This document shows, in pieces, positions 26,662 to 34,415 of a stretch of 64,000 nucleotides of DNA; the first letter of the stretch is position 1; the number at the start of each line of letters is the position of its first letter. The stretch lies in the NCBI GenBank assembly GCA_023382435.1, contig JAHDVS010000008.1, positions 12,272-76,271 of the forward strand, in the 5' to 3' direction. Position numbers and translations under genes: made by a program. The stretch is from Thermoleophilia bacterium (GTDB lineage: Bacteria > Actinomycetota > Thermoleophilia > Gaiellales > Gaiellaceae). The notes beneath the pieces are model-generated. The model searched no databases and was not told the origin of the DNA. It saw only the letters and a program-made list of their open reading frames with translations.

Positions 26662-27636
26662 TCAGGGCACGGGAGCCGCGGTCGCCGCCTGCTCGCGGAG
26701 TCGCCGCCGCTTCCCCGCCTCGTCTGCCACCTGCGGCAGCCATTCCAGATAGGCACCGACGTCCAGCGTTCCCTCTTCCACGCTGTAGGGGTAGCGATCC
26801 GCATGCACGTCATCCCAGAGCTCGAGGAGCTCCTGCTCCTCGACCCGGTGGAATCTGATGCGATCACCTGCCCGCAGGAGCAGCGGGCTCTCGCGAAACG
26901 CGGCGTTGCGAGCAGCGAGGTCGTAGATCGGCAGCGTGCGCCCGATCAGCTGGTAGCCGCCGGCCGACTCGACGGGGTAGATCGCCCAGCACGGGCCGCC
27001 GAGCCCGAGCGCTCCCTCCGGAGTCCAGGTGCGCGTCGGGTTGTATTTCGGCACGACAACCGCGTCGCGCGGGTCGAGCGGAAACATGAAGGGCAATCCG
27101 GGGAAGAACCCGATGAAGGCTGTCCACTGCTCGGTACCGAGCACGGCCTCGTAAAGCTCTTCGCGGTCGGCGAGCCCGTTGTAGCGGGCGATGTAGTCGA
27201 CGTTCGTGCCGCCCTCGCAGTTCGGCGCGTCCTTGCGGATCGAGTGGATGTAGCGCTCGACCGCCTGGCGTGTCTGCGAGTCGTCGAACGCCACCGGCAG
27301 GCGGACGAGACGACTCGGAAGAGTGATCTCTCGCTCCGCCTCGAGGCTCTCGTGCACCGCGTGCAGGTGATCGAGAAGCTCGTCAACGGAGAGCTGCAGG
27401 GGGTCATAGCTGACCAGGATCGACCGAAAGCCCGGGGCCGTCTCCACAAGCCCCTCGAGCGGCCACGTGCCGAGGGCGTCGTTGACGGCCAGGACGAAGA
27501 AGTTCAGCGTCAGGTCGAACTCCATCTCGCCGTACTCGACGAGAACGGCCCGGTCGCCCGCGTAGCGGTACGCAATGCCCGGCTTACCCTCTCGTGCCGG
27601 CTGCCGCTCGATCACAGCCGATGCCGTCGCGCCCAT
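26662..27636 (-). CDS. carboxyltransferase C/D-domain protein (AHS1 / KipI / PxpB homologue), long form
   Basis: 324 aa from ATG 27636 preceded by GGAAGGAGGG; YRYAGDRAVLVEYGE.., ETAPGFRSILVSYDP, GFFPGLPFM motifs. Confidence 0.8.
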   Translation of the reverse strand: MGATASAVIERQPAREGKPGIAYRYAGDRAVLVEYGEMEFDLTLNFFVLAVNDALGTWPLEGLVETAPGFRSILVSYDPLQLSVDELLDHLHAVHESLEAEREITLPSRLVRLPVAFDDSQTRQAVERYIHSIRKDAPNCEGGTNVDYIARYNGLADREELYEAVLGTEQWTAFIGFFPGLPFMFPLDPRDAVVVPKYNPTRTWTPEGALGLGGPCWAIYPVESAGGYQLIGRTLPIYDLAARNAAFRESPLLLRAGDRIRFHRVEEQELLELWDDVHADRYPYSVEEGTLDVGAYLEWLPQVADEAGKRRRLREQAATAAPVP

Positions 27637-27823
27637 CGCGGTCCACCCTCCTTCCGGGATGCCCGACAATACCGGTGCCCGGTGGCCTGCGTGCGGGGCG
27701 CGATTCCGACACGACGTCCAGACTCGGTGCCCGCTTGCCGGGGAGCAGCGGGACGCGGGACAGCAAGACGCCGCGGGATCGGCGACGATTGACCCGTCAA
27801 CGGGCACCGGTGAGGAGGCCGCC

Positions 27824-29386
27824 ATGGCTGAGAGCGAGACGCTGACGTTGCGGAGGATCCCCCGCCTCGAGTTGAACGAGCTGGCCCGGGAGTGGGGCTT
27901 CGCGATCGCGGCCGAGGAGGAGAGCGCGTACCTGCGGCTCGTCGACGGCGTCCTCTCCGTCCTCGACGAGCTGGACCGGCACCCGGTCCCCGTCGAGAAC
28001 GTCGAGGCGGTGCGGGACCCGGGGCGCCCGCCCGGGCCGGGGGAGGACCCCTGCAACGCCGTCGTGCGCTGGTGCCGGGTCGAGTCGACGCACGAGGGCG
28101 TCCTGGGCGGGATGCGGATCGCGGTCAAGGACTCGGTGGCCGTCGCCGGTGTCCCGATGACGTGCGGGTCACGAATCCTCACGGGGTTCGTCCCCGAGCG
28201 GGATGCCGTCGTCACGGAGCGGATCCTCGAGGCAGGCGGCGTGATCGCCGCGATCACGAACATGGACGACCTCGCCTTTTCCGGCGGCGGGGACACGAGC
28301 TGCTACGGCCCGACCCTCTGCCCGTTCGACCTGGCGCGCACCGCCGGCGGCTCGTCGGGCGGATCCGCCGCCGCCCTCTGGTACGAGGGCCTCGACGCCG
28401 CGATCGGCAGCGACCAGGGCGGGTCGATCCGGGTGCCCGCGGCGTGGTGCGGGGTGATCGGCCTCAAGCCCACCCACGGCCTCGTCCCGTACACCGGGAT
28501 CGCGGGGATCGACCGGACCTTCGATCATGCCGGGCCCCTGGGCCGGACCGCCGAGAGCGTCGCGCGCCTGCTCCAGGCCGTTACGAGCGGGGGCAGCGCC
28601 GCCCCGCAGCGGGGAGACACTGCGGTCGCCGACTACCTCAGCGCGGTCGCCGGGGCACCCGACGACCTCCGTGGTATCCGGCTCGGGCTCGTCGCGGAGA
28701 GCCTCGGCGAGGGTGTCGGCGCCACCGCCGAGGTGGCCGAGGCGACGCTGGAGACGCTCGAGCGCCTGCGCGAGCTCGGCGCCGACATCCGGGAGGTATC
28801 GCTTCCGGAGCATCTCCAGGCGGGCGGGATCGCCTTCGCGGGCTTCGTCGAGGGGATGACCGCGCTCATGGCCGGAGGCGGCAACGGCTACCACTGGTTC
28901 GGCCGCTATGCCCCCGATCTGGCGCTCGCGCTGAGACGGGGGCTGACCGCTCGCGCCGGCGAGCTGCCCGCCTCGGTCAAGACTGCCCTGCTGGTCGGCA
29001 CTCACCTGCGCCGCTCGTACCTCGGCGCGGTCTACGCGCAGGCCCAGAACCTGCGACCGTGGCTTCGGAGCGCGTACGACCGGGCCCTCGAGGGTCTCGA
29101 CGCCCTGCTTCTCCCGGCGACGCCCGGCCTTCCCCACCGAGACGACCCAGCGCTCTCGCTCTCCGACCGTGTCCTGCGCGGATGGGGCGTCCTCGCCAAC
29201 ACGTACCCGACCGACATGACGGGTCATCCCGCCCTCACCATCCCCGTGGCGGAGACCGGCGGCCTGCCCGTGGGCCTGATGCTCGTGGGGCGGCCGCTCG
29301 CGGAGGCCCGGCTGCTTCAGGTCGCGCGCACGGTCGAGGGCTCCCTCGGCTGGCGGCCCGACCCCTCGCTCGCCGCTGCCGCCTAG
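27824..29386 (+). CDS. amidase-signature family amidase
   Basis: Track ORF trimmed to ATG 27824 (GAGGAGG upstream); IAVKDS catalytic Lys context and GGSSGGSAAA signature. Confidence 0.85.
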   Translation: MAESETLTLRRIPRLELNELAREWGFAIAAEEESAYLRLVDGVLSVLDELDRHPVPVENVEAVRDPGRPPGPGEDPCNAVVRWCRVESTHEGVLGGMRIAVKDSVAVAGVPMTCGSRILTGFVPERDAVVTERILEAGGVIAAITNMDDLAFSGGGDTSCYGPTLCPFDLARTAGGSSGGSAAALWYEGLDAAIGSDQGGSIRVPAAWCGVIGLKPTHGLVPYTGIAGIDRTFDHAGPLGRTAESVARLLQAVTSGGSAAPQRGDTAVADYLSAVAGAPDDLRGIRLGLVAESLGEGVGATAEVAEATLETLERLRELGADIREVSLPEHLQAGGIAFAGFVEGMTALMAGGGNGYHWFGRYAPDLALALRRGLTARAGELPASVKTALLVGTHLRRSYLGAVYAQAQNLRPWLRSAYDRALEGLDALLLPATPGLPHRDDPALSLSDRVLRGWGVLANTYPTDMTGHPALTIPVAETGGLPVGLMLVGRPLAEARLLQVARTVEGSLGWRPDPSLAAAA

Positions 29387-29393
29387 CGACTGA

Positions 29394-29528
29394 TCAGAGC
29401 GACGCCGGAGACGACGAGGACGGTTCCGCCGTCTTCCTCGCGGAGCCGACCAGCGCGACGACCGGGAAGGCGGAGCCTGCCGGGACGATCTTGCTCGCGT
29501 CGCCCTTGGTCAGAGCGGAGGCCTTTCC
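29394..29528 (-). other. 44 sense codons in frame immediately after the TGA of the zinc-ribbon ORF
   Basis: Translates GKASALTKGDASKIVPAGSAFPVVALVGSARKTAEPSSSSPASL then TGA; 39/44 codons end in G/C; ends 7 nt from the amidase stop. Confidence 0.35.
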
Positions 29529-29735
29529 TCAGGTCCTCGGCTCGCCCTTCAGCTTCGGCAATACGTAGTCCCGGTAGAGCTCCACGCAGGCGGGACTGCA
29601 AAACCGGTGTTCCTCGCCCTCGACCTCGGCAACCCAGAGACGCTTGGGGACGACCTGGCCGCAGCAGTCGCACGGTGTCACGGCGGTCTCCCAGACCTGC
29701 GTCGTGATCGGCAGCCACCGGCCACTCACGGGCAC
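29529..29735 (-). CDS. 68-aa zinc-ribbon (TRASH/FCS-like) protein coupled to hyuB
   Basis: C-x-C-C-G ... RFCSPAC (Cys pairs about 21 residues apart); GTG start 29735 overlaps the hyuB 3' end by 10 nt. Confidence 0.55.
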   Translation of the reverse strand: MPVSGRWLPITTQVWETAVTPCDCCGQVVPKRLWVAEVEGEEHRFCSPACVELYRDYVLPKLKGEPRT

Positions 29736-31447
29736 TCCCAGCCGTACAGGTCGCGCGCCCGCTCCGGACTGACAAAGCCCTCGTAGACGTCGCGCGCGAC
29801 ACGCTCCCGGTCGCGCGCACGCGGGTCGCCATAGCCGCCGCCGCCGGGCGAGTCGATCAGCACCTCGTCGCCCTCCTCGAGCAGGATGTTCGTGAACTTC
29901 GACGGCGACACGGTCCCGAACGCCTCCGAGAAGGTGCGAAACTCCGCATCTCCCTTTCGCCTGACCATGATCGCCGCGCGACCACCCGTGCCGCCGCCCG
30001 CGAGGCCCCAGGCCCCGAAGCCCGGCTTGGTCCGGTCGAAGAGCGCGTTGACCGTCACCTCGGTGCTCGGCTCGACCCGGAGGATCCGGCGCGTGCCGAG
30101 ACCGCCGCGCATCCGCCCCGGCCCGCCCGAGTCCGGGATCAGCGAGTACTCGATCGTCCGCAGCGGGTAGCGCGTCTCGAAGATCTCGACCGGCGTGTTC
30201 CGGCAGTTGCCGTTCTTGACGATGATCGCGTCGTTGCCGTCGTCGTAGTCCTTAGCACCCCAGCCGCCGCCCTCGAGGTGGTAGTTCGCGTAGTAGTCGC
30301 CCGTCCTCGGATGGAAGCCGCCGAAGAGGAAGTTGCACGCCGTCCCCCCCTCGGCCGCCGCGACCCGGCCGGGAAGCGCCTGCGCGAGCGCGGCAATGAC
30401 CATGTCGGCGAGCTTGGGATGCGTCTCGGTGTTGCCGCCGACGGACGGACCCGGGTAGACGACGTTCACGGCGGAGCCGGGCGGCGCGATGATCGAGATC
30501 GGCCGGTAGACACCGGAGTTCTTCGGGATGCTCTGGTCGGTCAGATGGAAGATCGCGTTGTACGTCGCGCCGGCGGTCACGCCGTAGGTGGCGTTGATCG
30601 GGCCCCGCACCTGGGGGTCGGTCCCGGTCCAGTCGACGATCAGCCGATCGCCGTCGACTGTTACCTCGACGTGGAAGGTGACCGGGCGCTCGACGACGCC
30701 GTCGTCCTCCATTCGGGCGGTGAACGCATACCGTCCGTCGGGGATCGCCCTGATCTCGGTGCGCATCCAGCGCTCCGAGTAGTCCATCAGCTCCTCCGCC
30801 GCCTCCTCGACGAGATCGCGGCCGTACCGTTCGAGGAGCAGCTGGACGCTCCGCTCGGCGACCCGCAACGAGCCGATCTGGGCGTTGAGGTCACCCCAGG
30901 TATTCCGGGGGGTCCGGTGGTTGGCCATGATCAGCCGCCAGAGGTCCATGTTGGGCCGGTCGCGGCTGACGATCTTGACCGGCGGGATCCGAAGCCCCTC
31001 CTGGAAGACCTCGGTTGCGTCAGCGGCGAAGCTCCCGACGGCCTTGCCCCCGATCTCGGCCAGGTGACCGACGTTGGCGACGAAACCGAAGAGCTCGCCG
31101 TCGAAGAAGACGGGACGGATCACCGAGTGCTCCGGGATGTGAGCGCCACCTCGATAGGGGTCGTTGTGGAGGACGACGTCGCCCTCCTCGAACGAGTCGA
31201 CGCCAAGCTCCTCGACCGTCCAGCGAACGATGAAGAGGCTGGCCGCGATCTGGGCGGGGCAGAACTCCGCCTGGCCGATCATGTTGCCGTGCCGGTCGAA
31301 GAGGACACACGAGAAGTCGAGACCCTCGTTGAAGATCGGCGAGAAGGCTGTCCTCATCATGGTGATGCCCATCTCGCGACAGATGTTTACGAAGGCGTTG
31401 TTCACGATGGCGAGCGTTACTGGATCGATGCCGCCGCCCACCCTCAC
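29726..31447 (-). CDS. hyuB: hydantoinase B / oxoprolinase-family subunit
   Basis: 573 aa; typical HyuB sequence (DPVTLAIVNNAF..., NDPYRGGAHIPE); GTGA overlap with hyuA. Confidence 0.9.
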   Translation of the reverse strand: MRVGGGIDPVTLAIVNNAFVNICREMGITMMRTAFSPIFNEGLDFSCVLFDRHGNMIGQAEFCPAQIAASLFIVRWTVEELGVDSFEEGDVVLHNDPYRGGAHIPEHSVIRPVFFDGELFGFVANVGHLAEIGGKAVGSFAADATEVFQEGLRIPPVKIVSRDRPNMDLWRLIMANHRTPRNTWGDLNAQIGSLRVAERSVQLLLERYGRDLVEEAAEELMDYSERWMRTEIRAIPDGRYAFTARMEDDGVVERPVTFHVEVTVDGDRLIVDWTGTDPQVRGPINATYGVTAGATYNAIFHLTDQSIPKNSGVYRPISIIAPPGSAVNVVYPGPSVGGNTETHPKLADMVIAALAQALPGRVAAAEGGTACNFLFGGFHPRTGDYYANYHLEGGGWGAKDYDDGNDAIIVKNGNCRNTPVEIFETRYPLRTIEYSLIPDSGGPGRMRGGLGTRRILRVEPSTEVTVNALFDRTKPGFGAWGLAGGGTGGRAAIMVRRKGDAEFRTFSEAFGTVSPSKFTNILLEEGDEVLIDSPGGGGYGDPRARDRERVARDVYEGFVSPERARDLYGWECP

Positions 31448-33483
31448 CCCTCCTCACGGACGAGCTCGAGCACGCCGCGGCGGCCGCTCTCGAGCCGCCA
31501 GGCGGGGGGGACGACGATCGTCGAGTCCATCTCCTCGACGATCGCCGGGCCGCCGCGCACGCTGCCAAGCTCGAGCGAATCGCGCCGCACCACGGGCGTG
31601 GCGACGAAGCCGTGCTCCGGAAACCAGACCTCGCGCGACTCGTCGCGGGCGGCGGGCCCGCCCCCCTGAACGAGCTCCGGCAGACGCCTGTCCTCGCCGA
31701 CGACCACGACCTGGAGACGAACGAGCTCGATCGGGATTCCGTCCAGCCGGTAGCCGTAGAAACTCTCGTAGAGGCGCGCGAACTGCTCGTAGACACCCGG
31801 CAGGTCGTCGTCAGCGAGCTCACCCCCCGGCACCGTCACCTCCGTCTCGTAGTTCTGACCCTGGTAGCGCATGGCGATCGATCGGCGCACCTCGTGGGAG
31901 GCGACTCCGCCTGCCTGAGCCTCGAAGTCGGCAACGGATCGGGACTCGAGCTCCGTGAAGAGCCGGCTCACCTCGGCCGCAGTCGCCCGCACGTCGGTGA
32001 GGTAGACGCTCTTGACGGCATCGACCCGCACCTGGGCCGCGAGCGCGCCGAAGGCCGAGGCGAGACCGGGATTGGCCGGCACGATCACTCGACCGATCCC
32101 GATCGCAGCGGCGATCTCGGCCGCATGCGTCGGCCCGGCGCCGCCCATGGCGACGATGGCGAACTCGCGCGGATCGATGCCCTGCTCGACCGTCACGATC
32201 CGGATCGCGTTGGCCATGTTCTCGTTTGCCACCCGTACCATCGAGGCGGCGACGTCGACCGCGTCGCGGCCGAGCTTCGCGGCGAGCCGCCCCAGCGCCG
32301 CGCGGCTGAGCGAAGCGTCGAGGGCGAGCCGTCCGCCGAGGAAGAAGTCGGGGTTCAGCCGGCCGAGGGCGAGGTTCGCGTCGGTCAGCGTCGTCTCCTC
32401 GCCGCCGCGGCCGTAGCACGCGGGGCCGGGGTCGGCCCCCGCGCTGCCCGGCCCGACCTGGAGGAAGCCGCCGGAGTCGACCCAGCCGATCGAACCACCG
32501 CCGGCGCCGATCGTCTTCGTCGACACCGACGGAACCGAGACGGGAAAGCCGTACTCGATTTCGAAGTCCGAGGAGTAGAGCGGCTCGCCGCCGACGATCA
32601 GACAGACATCGCAGCTCGTCCCGCCCATATCGACGACGATCCCCTTTTCCGTTCCCGCAAGCCGCGCGAAATGCGCGCCGCCGATGGCGCCCCCGGCGAT
32701 TCCGGACAGCAGGAGGTGCGCCGGCCGCTCCCGCGCCTCGGCGGCGAGGGCGTGCCCGCCGTTCGACTTCAGAAGCGACGGACGGCTCGAGATCCCCTGC
32801 GAGACGAGCGCGTCGCCGAGCCCGGACACGTACTCGTCGAGGAGAGGCTTCAGGTAGGCGTCGACGATGGCCGTCGTGCCCCGCTCGTACTCACGCCAGA
32901 TCGGCGCCACTTCGTGGGAGAGGGACACCGGCAGGCCGGTCCGCTCCTCCAGGAACGTGCGCGTGGCCAGCTCGTGCTCGGGGTCGAGGTACGAGAAGAG
33001 GAAGCAGACGGCGATCGCGAGGCGATCGCCGTCTGCCCGGGACTCGACGCTCTCGAGAACGCGTTCGAGCTCCCGGGTAGCGAGCGGCACGAGCTCCCGC
33101 CCCTCCTCGTCCAAGCGCTCGTCGACCCCGATGCAGTCTGGCCGGTGGACGAGCGGCGTCGGCTTGCGCCAGCGAAAGTCGTAGTGGTACTTCCGGGAGA
33201 TCCGCTGGATGAATGGGACGTCCTCGAAGCCCTTCGTCGTCAAATAGAGAACACGGGCGCCCGTCCGCGTGAGGACGGCGTTGATTCCGATCGTCGTACC
33301 GACGACGACGATCGAGATGCGCTCGGGATCGAGACCCGCCGCCTCGAGGGCCGCAGCCACAGCGGAGACCGGGTCCTTCGGGTTCGACGGGACCTTGGCG
33401 ACGTGCCAGCGGCCCGCCTCCTCGTCGACGGCTACGAGGTCGGTGAACGTCCCGCCCGTATCGATCCCGACCCGAATGCCCAT
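31444..33483 (-). CDS. hyuA: hydantoinase A / oxoprolinase-family ATPase subunit
   Basis: Track ORF trimmed to MGIRVGIDTGGTFTDLVAV; ASKHA-type DMGGTSCDV motif. Confidence 0.9.
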   Translation of the reverse strand: MGIRVGIDTGGTFTDLVAVDEEAGRWHVAKVPSNPKDPVSAVAAALEAAGLDPERISIVVVGTTIGINAVLTRTGARVLYLTTKGFEDVPFIQRISRKYHYDFRWRKPTPLVHRPDCIGVDERLDEEGRELVPLATRELERVLESVESRADGDRLAIAVCFLFSYLDPEHELATRTFLEERTGLPVSLSHEVAPIWREYERGTTAIVDAYLKPLLDEYVSGLGDALVSQGISSRPSLLKSNGGHALAAEARERPAHLLLSGIAGGAIGGAHFARLAGTEKGIVVDMGGTSCDVCLIVGGEPLYSSDFEIEYGFPVSVPSVSTKTIGAGGGSIGWVDSGGFLQVGPGSAGADPGPACYGRGGEETTLTDANLALGRLNPDFFLGGRLALDASLSRAALGRLAAKLGRDAVDVAASMVRVANENMANAIRIVTVEQGIDPREFAIVAMGGAGPTHAAEIAAAIGIGRVIVPANPGLASAFGALAAQVRVDAVKSVYLTDVRATAAEVSRLFTELESRSVADFEAQAGGVASHEVRRSIAMRYQGQNYETEVTVPGGELADDDLPGVYEQFARLYESFYGYRLDGIPIELVRLQVVVVGEDRRLPELVQGGGPAARDESREVWFPEHGFVATPVVRRDSLELGSVRGGPAIVEEMDSTIVVPPAWRLESGRRGVLELVREEG

Positions 33484-33571
33484 CGAGGTCCCGCGCTCGA
33501 CTCTATCCGGCGCGACGGGGAGGCGTAGGATCGAGCACCGCTGCCCACGCCCGACCCTGATGAGGTGAGCG

Positions 33572-34054
33572 ATGACGAACGACCTGGCCGCACGGATCGC
33601 AAAGCTCGAGGCAATCGAGGAGATCCGTCGCCTCAAGGCACGCTACGCGGATGTCTGCGACACGGGCTACGACCCCGATCGCATGGGGCCGTTCTTCACG
33701 CGCGACGCCGTGTGGGACGGCGGCGAGCGCTTTGGCCGGCACGAGGGTATCGAGGCGATCCGGGCCTTCTTCGCGGGCGTCTCGAGCCAGATCACCTGGG
33801 CGCTCCACTACATGGTCGCGCCGACCGTCGATGTCGCGGACAGCATCGAGACCGCGACGGGTAGCTGGTACCTCTGGCAGCCCTGCACCGTCGTCGGCGA
33901 CGCCGGCGCACAGGCCGTCTGGCTGACCGGCCGCTACACCGACCGCTACCGCCGCGAGGATGGCGTCTGGAAGTTCGCCGAAGTCCGGCTCGACTGCCAG
34001 ACGATCAGCCCCGTCGAGGAGGGCTGGGTCCGCCGACCGTTCTGGAACGAGTAG
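33572..34054 (+). CDS. SnoaL-like / NTF2-family protein
   Basis: 160 aa; LEAIEEIRRLKARYADVCD... start typical of the SnoaL_4 subgroup; TAGGAT box and GAGGTGAG upstream. Confidence 0.7.
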   Translation: MTNDLAARIAKLEAIEEIRRLKARYADVCDTGYDPDRMGPFFTRDAVWDGGERFGRHEGIEAIRAFFAGVSSQITWALHYMVAPTVDVADSIETATGSWYLWQPCTVVGDAGAQAVWLTGRYTDRYRREDGVWKFAEVRLDCQTISPVEEGWVRRPFWNE

Positions 34055-34125: not shown

Positions 34126-34415
34126 TCGCAGCGGCCGCAGCCGAAGATCGACTCGCTCCTCCGCCCGCTCGAGGAGACCCCTGCCCTGTACGACACGCTC
34201 CTCGCGTACTTCCACGAGGACTTCGACGTGGGCCGCACCGCCAAGCGGCTGCACCTCCACCCCGGCTCGCTCGGATCGAGCGACGCCTCAGCCGTTCCCT
34301 CCGCTCGCCGGCCACGATTGCCGACCTCTATCTGGCGATCCTCGCCACGGAAGCCCCGGGCCGGAAGGCGAGTTCACCTCCGGATTCGGGCGCCGGGCAC
34401 CCGCGCGGGAGGTAA
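34126..34415 (+). pseudogene. relic of a PucR-type regulator (C-terminal HTH only, frameshifted)
   Basis: Frame A reads ..LYDTLLAYFHEDFDVGRTAKRLHLHPGSL; frame A-1 continues ARIERRLSRSLRSPATIADLYLAILATEA; together they match the PucR C-terminal HTH pattern; no N-terminal domains, in-frame stop at 34123. Confidence 0.5.

Follow-up and report, generated by a model that had tools for sequence, protein, structure and literature searches.

Small zinc-binding partners have been described for two carboxylases whose other subunits belong to the HyuA/HyuB superfamily. The gamma subunit of acetone carboxylase, AcxC, is a Yippee-like protein of approximately 20 kDa that carries Cys74, Cys76, Cys124 and Cys127 (PMC5543143), and the gamma subunit of acetophenone carboxylase carries Cys22, Cys25, Cys75 and Cys78 (PMC5214803). 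In these subunits, the zinc is structural and situated far from the active site (PMC5543143; PMC5214803). Hydantoinases are without orthologs of the acetophenone carboxylase (Apc) gamma subunit (PMC5214803), and caprolactamase has been described as a two-subunit enzyme that has no zinc-finger partner (PMC8453981). A different type of small zinc-binding module is represented by the TRASH/zf-FCS family (PF06467, PF24273 and the archaeal eL24-like treble clefs). No papers that link TRASH or zf-FCS modules to hydantoinases or caprolactamase were found.

The DNA analyzed here is a stretch of 64,000 nucleotides from a Thermoleophilia bacterium, referred to in its full length as the window. It contains, on the minus strand, genes for a hydantoinase A/caprolactamase-alpha-like subunit (hyuA, 31444..33636; PF05378, PF01968 and PF19278) and a hydantoinase B/caprolactamase-beta-like subunit (hyuB, 29726..31447; PF02538, E = 1e-179). 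The best NCBIfam models for the two proteins are CapA (475 bits) and CapB (347 bits), the subunits of the Pseudomonas jessenii caprolactamase, though the equivalog cut-offs of 1000 are missed by a wide margin in both cases. The true start of hyuA is probably located downstream of the TTG at 33636; in the longest open reading frame (ORF), the first domain starts at residue 55. Beyond the 3' end of hyuB lies a small minus-strand gene, followed by a convergent amidase-signature amidase gene on the plus strand (27824..29386; PF01425, E = 7e-88; NCBIfam PRK07235 amidase). The longest ORF of the amidase extends from 27575, while homology begins near the ATG at 27824, which is the likely start codon. 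A further long ORF overlaps the amidase gene on the minus strand (26662-28296) and encodes a CT_C_D (PxpB-like) domain; since this domain starts only at residue 243, the true start of the ORF is probably situated near 27570.

The small gene was initially delineated as a 68-codon minus-strand ORF (29735..29529) that begins at the first GTG, overlaps hyuB by 10 nt and carries the motifs C-x-C-C-G and RFCSPAC. Its translation reads VPVSGRWLPITTQVWETAVTPCDCCGQVVPKRLWVAEVEGEEHRFCSPACVELYRDYVLPKLKGEPRT* and ends at a TGA at 29531..29529, beyond which the frame remains open over 44 codons (GKASALTKGD...SSSSPASL; in full, GKASALTKGDASKIVPAGSAFPVVALVGSARKTAEPSSSSPASL*) until the next in-frame TGA at 29396..29394, which is only 7 nt away from the amidase stop codon at 29384..29386. 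The gap of 142 bp between the two genes (29387..29528) is therefore almost entirely occupied by an open frame, in which G or C occupies the third position of 39 of the 44 codons, and four codons are AAG. If the terminal stop is included, G or C is found at the first, second and third codon positions in 26/45, 30/45 and 39/45 cases, respectively. The sequence features reported in a preliminary description of the locus are all correct; that description considered the stretch to be coding-like and offered a recent nonsense mutation, a sequencing error or stop-codon read-through or recoding as explanations. The coding-like character is borne out by the present analysis and the codon periodicity is real, yet none of the three explanations is upheld.

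With regard to the start of the small gene, homologs begin one to three residues before a G-R-W motif, and the gene call on the near-identical contig L001 starts at the second GTG. For these reasons, the protein is likely to consist of 66 amino acids starting from the second GTG at 29729 (29529..29729, minus strand; 66 codons plus TGA). With this start, the gene would share the 4 nt GTGA with the hyuB stop codon, as opposed to the 10-nt overlap that results from the upstream GTG at 29735. Thus, the ORF itself is retained from the preliminary description and only its likely start is revised.

The assignment of the product as a zinc-ribbon protein coupled to hyuB is well supported. The small ORF matches the Pfam zf-FCS model PF06467 with 28.8 bits (cut-off 22.4) and the TRASH models more weakly. 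In an alignment of 14 sequences, i.e., the window protein and 13 metagenome homologs of 60-70 amino acids drawn from a collection of 5.8 billion proteins, C22, C25, C46 and C50 are invariant. Their arrangement, C-x2-C-x20-C-x3-C, corresponds to the C-x2-C-x19-22-C-x3-C pattern that, together with a Pfam match above the cut-off, places the protein in the TRASH/zf-FCS family. An additional motif, G-x-W...V-W-x-T-x2-T-P, is also invariant and includes the conserved N-terminal part G-x-W...V-W-x-T. Weak matches to eL24 and to the TRASH domain of ZMYM5 were obtained as well. The AlphaFold model of the protein reached a pLDDT of 78.7, and the best TRASH-domain match found for it by Foldseek was 2das (E = 0.84, TM 0.45-0.49), with none at E <= 0.001. 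Unlike known TRASH/zf-FCS modules, the window protein and its homologs are stand-alone proteins of 60-70 amino acids encoded in HyuAB operons of Thermoleophilia, or are fused to HyuB. A scan of one genome per species revealed 46 further loci with this zinc finger, all of them in Thermoleophilia, Gaiellales, Solirubrobacterales and allied metagenome-assembled genomes. In the representative library, a protein of 5308 amino acids (P0020) exhibited 15 stretches that match the zinc-finger query and is presumably a multi-MYM/FCS-finger protein.

The small protein resembles the gamma subunits of acetone and acetophenone carboxylase in being a small four-cysteine protein encoded together with subunits of the HyuA/HyuB superfamily, and a kinship with the former had been suggested. 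However, the two cysteine pairs are separated by 20 residues in the window protein and by about 48-50 residues in AcxC and Apc-gamma, and the respective sizes are 66 and about 120-170 amino acids. Such a kinship was not detectable by any of the three approaches applied: the family model of the gamma subunits, PF08882, did not match the small protein at E <= 1, no AcxC or Apc chain was present among the PDB profile matches at E <= 10, and neither protein was found among the 50 Foldseek matches listed out of 191 with E <= 10. The window protein is consequently not assigned to the PF08882 family.

The 3' end of the small gene is equally well defined by comparison. All 59 homologs, comprising the 13 metagenome sequences and the 46 genome loci, stop 13-24 residues past the FCxxxC motif, and the window protein stops after 18. 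The alignment of these sequences contains neither a sense codon at the position of the TGA nor a homolog of about 110 amino acids. Similarly, when the TGA was read as tryptophan and the resulting 111-aa product was compared with 1.84 billion representatives by phmmer, 114 matches were returned, essentially all of which were confined to residues 1-79, and the tail was shared by none of them. An independent ENA metagenome contig (L001) differs from the window by 1 base in 461 and carries the same TGA followed by an identical spacer. The small zinc-finger gene is thus predicted with confidence to terminate at its normal TGA. That a real protein of 113 amino acids was recently cut short by a nonsense mutation, or only seems so because of a sequencing error, is suggested solely by the in-frame continuity past the TGA. 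Truncation of a longer protein is excluded by the shared end point of the homologs, whose C-termini differ in position by a few residues only, and a sequencing error is contradicted by the independent assembly L001, which has the same TGA and spacer. In addition, the tail is homologous to a gene for an EamA transporter (see below) and not to any zinc-finger relative. The probability of this explanation is therefore considered negligible.

An open frame downstream of a stop codon has to be viewed in light of the base composition of this genome, which has a GC content of 72%. Across 1708 genes called with confidence, the stop is followed by a median of 64 sense codons, and in 61% of them by at least 44. 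In 97% of the gaps of 90-250 bp, some frame is open over at least 90% of the gap, and 15% of the spacers of 60-170 bp equal or surpass the spacer studied here in their best-frame coding score; these gap statistics stem from a crude gene set and a null contaminated by uncalled small genes, and they serve only to establish what is normal for open frames. Hence, the open 44-codon frame alone is not beyond chance in this genome. The codon usage of the spacer is weak, at approximately the 10th percentile of real genes, and ambiguous with respect to the strand: the minus frame scored -3.5 and the plus frame, which has the same third positions, +4.0, both in the tails of the distribution of real genes. 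The notion that the periodicity arose by chance in a GC-rich spacer that never encoded anything is compatible with the gap statistics, given that 15% of short spacers score as coding-like or better and that nearly all gaps of this size contain a frame open over almost their whole length. Against this stands the homology of the spacer to eamA genes of no fewer than eight genomes, with E values down to 2.5e-9, in the form of two collinear blocks that end at a homologous stop codon. We therefore regard a purely fortuitous origin as extremely improbable.

The homology became apparent when the 44-aa tail was compared with 100 genomes of the same family. The best matches were obtained in G089 (per-genome E = 2.5e-9) and G068 (per-genome E = 2.8e-9) with 71-74% identity, and weaker ones in G012, G076, G118, G124, G025 and G062. 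The matched frames belong to a membrane protein of 135 amino acids that is covered end to end by the Pfam model EamA (PF00892; 49.2 bits, cut-off 28.2). The preliminary description had cautioned that the shadow frame on the plus strand reads plausibly as well. Homology resolves this ambiguity: the plus-strand frame reaches E = 5.6e-6 and is interrupted by stops in several matches, whereas the minus-strand frame reaches E = 2.5e-9 without any stops, which identifies the minus strand as the original coding strand of the stretch.

DNA and protein alignments, including a MAFFT alignment with six intact orthologous operons (L067, L079, L083, L088, L089 and L091), allowed us to delineate what is left of the gene on the minus strand. 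Directly after the TGA of the small gene, the sequence GGAAAGG (29522..29528) aligns with the GAAAGGA that precedes the eamA ATG in these six species and appears to be the retained ribosome-binding spacer of the lost eamA gene. It is followed by the junction of a 251-nt deletion (29521..29522), which took with it the start codon of eamA and approximately 81 codons. The first remnant block (29439..29519; SALTKGDASKIVPAGSAFPVVALVGSA) represents codons 82-108 of the gene for the 135-aa protein, lies in the frame of the small ORF and is identical to nine intact homologs in 16-22 of 27 residues, with E = 2e-12 in tblastn. Next, only 11 nt (29428..29438) are left where the homologs have 39 nt, i.e., a 28-nt deletion has shifted the frame. 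The second block (29383..29427) corresponds to codons 122-135 plus the stop codon, GTVLVVSGVALISR*, in a frame that differs from that of the first block; 9-12 of 15 positions are identical to intact homologs, and its stop is aligned with theirs. At 29383-29386, the tetranucleotide CTAG provides a TAG stop on both strands, for the amidase on the plus strand and for the eamA remnant on the minus strand. The similarity to PF00892 is therefore significant and collinear, as expected for a homologous remnant, but instead of an intact ORF covering the approximately 135 positions of a functional single-domain EamA protein, only residues 82-108 and 122-135 are represented. In comparison with intact members of the family, the window keeps the last third only, without a start codon and with a 28-nt frameshifting deletion, and can be classified as a pseudogene fragment. 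No intact EamA copy was detected in the 96%-complete genome of the window, in which a full-length EamA query matched the remnant alone (E = 1e-4, residues 83-113).

These findings lead to the proposal, to which we assign a probability of roughly 0.93, that the stretch downstream of the TGA is the decayed tail of a lost EamA transporter gene, which is in frame with the small gene by chance, and not a read-through extension of the latter. In this model, the ancestral operon would have had the order hyuA-hyuB-zinc finger-eamA, with eamA as the last gene encoding a single-domain transporter of 135 amino acids. The 251-nt deletion eliminated the start codon of eamA and the first ~81 codons while sparing the ribosome-binding spacer, and the 28-nt deletion then shifted the frame near the 3' end of the gene, an order of events that we infer. 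The first remnant block came to lie in the frame of the small gene by a one-in-three chance, so that it looks like a continuation past the stop codon. The GC3 periodicity and the AAG codons would have been inherited from the former eamA gene; that is, the stretch would be periodic because it is ex-coding DNA. Due to the missing start codon and the frameshift, the remnant is most likely neither translated nor expressed.

Read-through or selenocysteine recoding at the TGA, which would give rise to a zinc-finger protein of ~111 amino acids with a C-terminal extension, has to be weighed against this model. Besides the 44-codon open frame with its high GC3 content, it can invoke the presence of the selenocysteine machinery, which makes UGA recoding mechanistically available: the genome contains a tRNA-Sec gene with the anticodon TCA (G000 C17:16789-16881) and, ~3 kb away, a selB gene (G000 C17:12618-13652; 315 bits, cut-off 242 bits), both outside of the window. 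Judging from its genome, the organism probably makes selenoproteins. The extension, however, is part of the remains of an unrelated transporter gene, which has its own frameshift and its own stop codon in another frame. Moreover, the TGA is situated in the unconserved C-terminal tail and not at a redox site, no homolog exhibits a cysteine, a selenocysteine or any sense codon at this position, and a longer tail that could be conserved downstream is found in none of them. An Rfam search at E <= 1 did not reveal a SECIS element, and the folding z-score was -0.1. Recoding is thus very improbable. In the same genome, ARAGORN reported a 97-nt "tRNA-???" with the four-base anticodon tcct (G000 C1:143793-143889, outside of the window). 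This may represent either an artefact or a tRNA that is unusual or contains an intron.

It is also conceivable that translation of the remnant persists and yields a mini-protein of ~41 amino acids initiated at the in-frame CTG at 29513..29511 with the aid of GGAAAGG. This Shine-Dalgarno-like spacer is indeed kept at its native distance from the near-cognate CTG, which lies 8 nt downstream. However, CTG is a rare start codon, and the product would consist of one transmembrane-like segment followed by out-of-frame sequence. The codon usage is, as described above, both weak and ambiguous between the strands, and the sole other carrier of the sequence is the identical contig L001. Translation of the remnant in this form is accordingly judged to be highly unlikely, and a decayed, silent eamA fragment is preferred.

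Several additional candidates for the origin of the spacer were examined and rejected. A remnant of a cupin gene is not indicated, as a blastp comparison of all six frames with five cupins returned nothing below E = 0.01 beyond low-complexity noise. Neither is a repeat or mobile element, as a blastn search with the spacer against the whole genome found the spacer itself alone. Fold z-scores of -0.10 and -0.27 provide no indication of a structured RNA, and neither does the single Rfam match, to Bp1_684, point to a riboswitch, as it remained below its threshold (20 bits, cut-off 44 bits). No terminator-like or promoter-like site was found in the spacer. Finally, a longer C-terminus of the amidase in the plus-strand frame is contradicted by the amidase of L003, which is 57% identical, likewise convergent on the small gene, and ends at the same place.

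Analysis of the genomic context revealed a variable organization downstream of the zinc-finger gene. In the six species used for the alignment, an intact eamA gene on the same strand begins 15-48 nt after the stop codon of the small gene. In five of the six, those with hyuB in the locus, the HyuB protein is 83-87% identical to that of the window. Four of the six (L079, L083, L089 and L091) contain an additional ADC-like gene of ~232 codons between hyuB and the small gene. This gene, which was located at L079:2300-3000, L089:2300-3000, L091:1680-2380 and L063:2290-3000 and is absent from the window, encodes a protein beginning with MTLHAPQLI..., and its stop codon overlaps the start of the zinc-finger gene (TGATG). 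A homolog in L034 is weakly similar to acetoacetate decarboxylase (PF06314, E = 7e-4). The comparison of these loci establishes the predicted ancestral operon structure as hyuA-hyuB-(ADC-like)-zinc finger-eamA. In many other relatives, the small gene is followed by a cupin gene, and in two (L003 and L068) a convergent amidase gene lies right after it at a distance of 2-36 nt. In the window, the eamA remnant is placed between the small gene and the convergent amidase, and this arrangement has the appearance of a stage of decay intermediate between the organization with eamA and that with the amidase. Block 1 is closest to the EamA proteins of G089 (22/27) and G068 (21/27), both encoded in other contexts, and shares 16-19 of 27 residues with the six syntenic copies, although 27 residues are too few to resolve the closest relative. 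The only genome of the same genus that was searched (G001) does not contain the small gene, an EamA gene or an orthologous amidase gene, i.e., the whole island is absent. Because no closely related genome, for example from the same genus, was found to carry an intact eamA beside the amidase, we infer the exact history of the deletions.

A second, paralogous island was observed in L041 (G012:C7), L043 (G118:C24) and L046 (G124:C19), where an orf33503-like gene, eamA, hyuA', hyuB' and a convergent amidase gene are found. The hyuA' and hyuB' products of these three genomes are 36-42% identical to those of the window, and the amidase is orthologous, with 64-72% identity. As eamA is located beside hyuA'B' too, EamA transporters accompany both HyuAB types in this family. 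In G089 (locus L040, G089:C2, 7411-12017), a purM/PucR pair is conserved with the window (71% identity for purM and 75% for PucR). In this genome, an intact eamA converges directly on the PucR gene, with a second PucR-like gene following eamA, and this layout may be related to a putative PucR relic at 34126-34415 of the window.

Upstream of the zinc-finger gene, the organization is constant. In every locus with a visible upstream context, the gene follows hyuB or the ADC-like gene inserted after hyuB. Natural fusions were identified as well, in which the C-terminus of HyuB is joined via a linker to the zinc finger (P0048, P0076 and P0114) or the zinc finger is joined to the N-terminus of HyuB (P0040). 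The constant operon position and these fusions support a partnership between the zinc finger and HyuB and agree with the working hypothesis of an accessory subunit of HyuAB. It can tentatively be proposed that the 60-70-aa TRASH/zf-FCS protein serves a caprolactamase-like clade of HyuAB enzymes in Thermoleophilia as a zinc-binding third subunit that has so far escaped description. Its acquisition would have been independent of that of the Yippee-like gamma subunit of acetone and acetophenone carboxylases. Based on sequence comparison, the chances of this proposal are rated somewhat below even.

For the interpretation of the locus itself, the analysis removes a false lead: the coding-like DNA downstream of the small gene would not point to recoding, read-through or a truncated protein but to a decayed neighboring gene. 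For GC-rich genomes in general, an open, GC3-rich frame after a stop codon should be considered the default, and a homology test should precede any claim of recoding. The comparison also adds further instances of a zinc finger fused to HyuB and reveals a small EamA transporter linked to this HyuAB clade, which may help to guess the substrate; import or export of a small lactam or cyclic amide is conceivable. If the small protein is indeed a third subunit, the window would show the corresponding operon in the act of losing its linked EamA transporter, and the remnant would represent a snapshot of operon decay.
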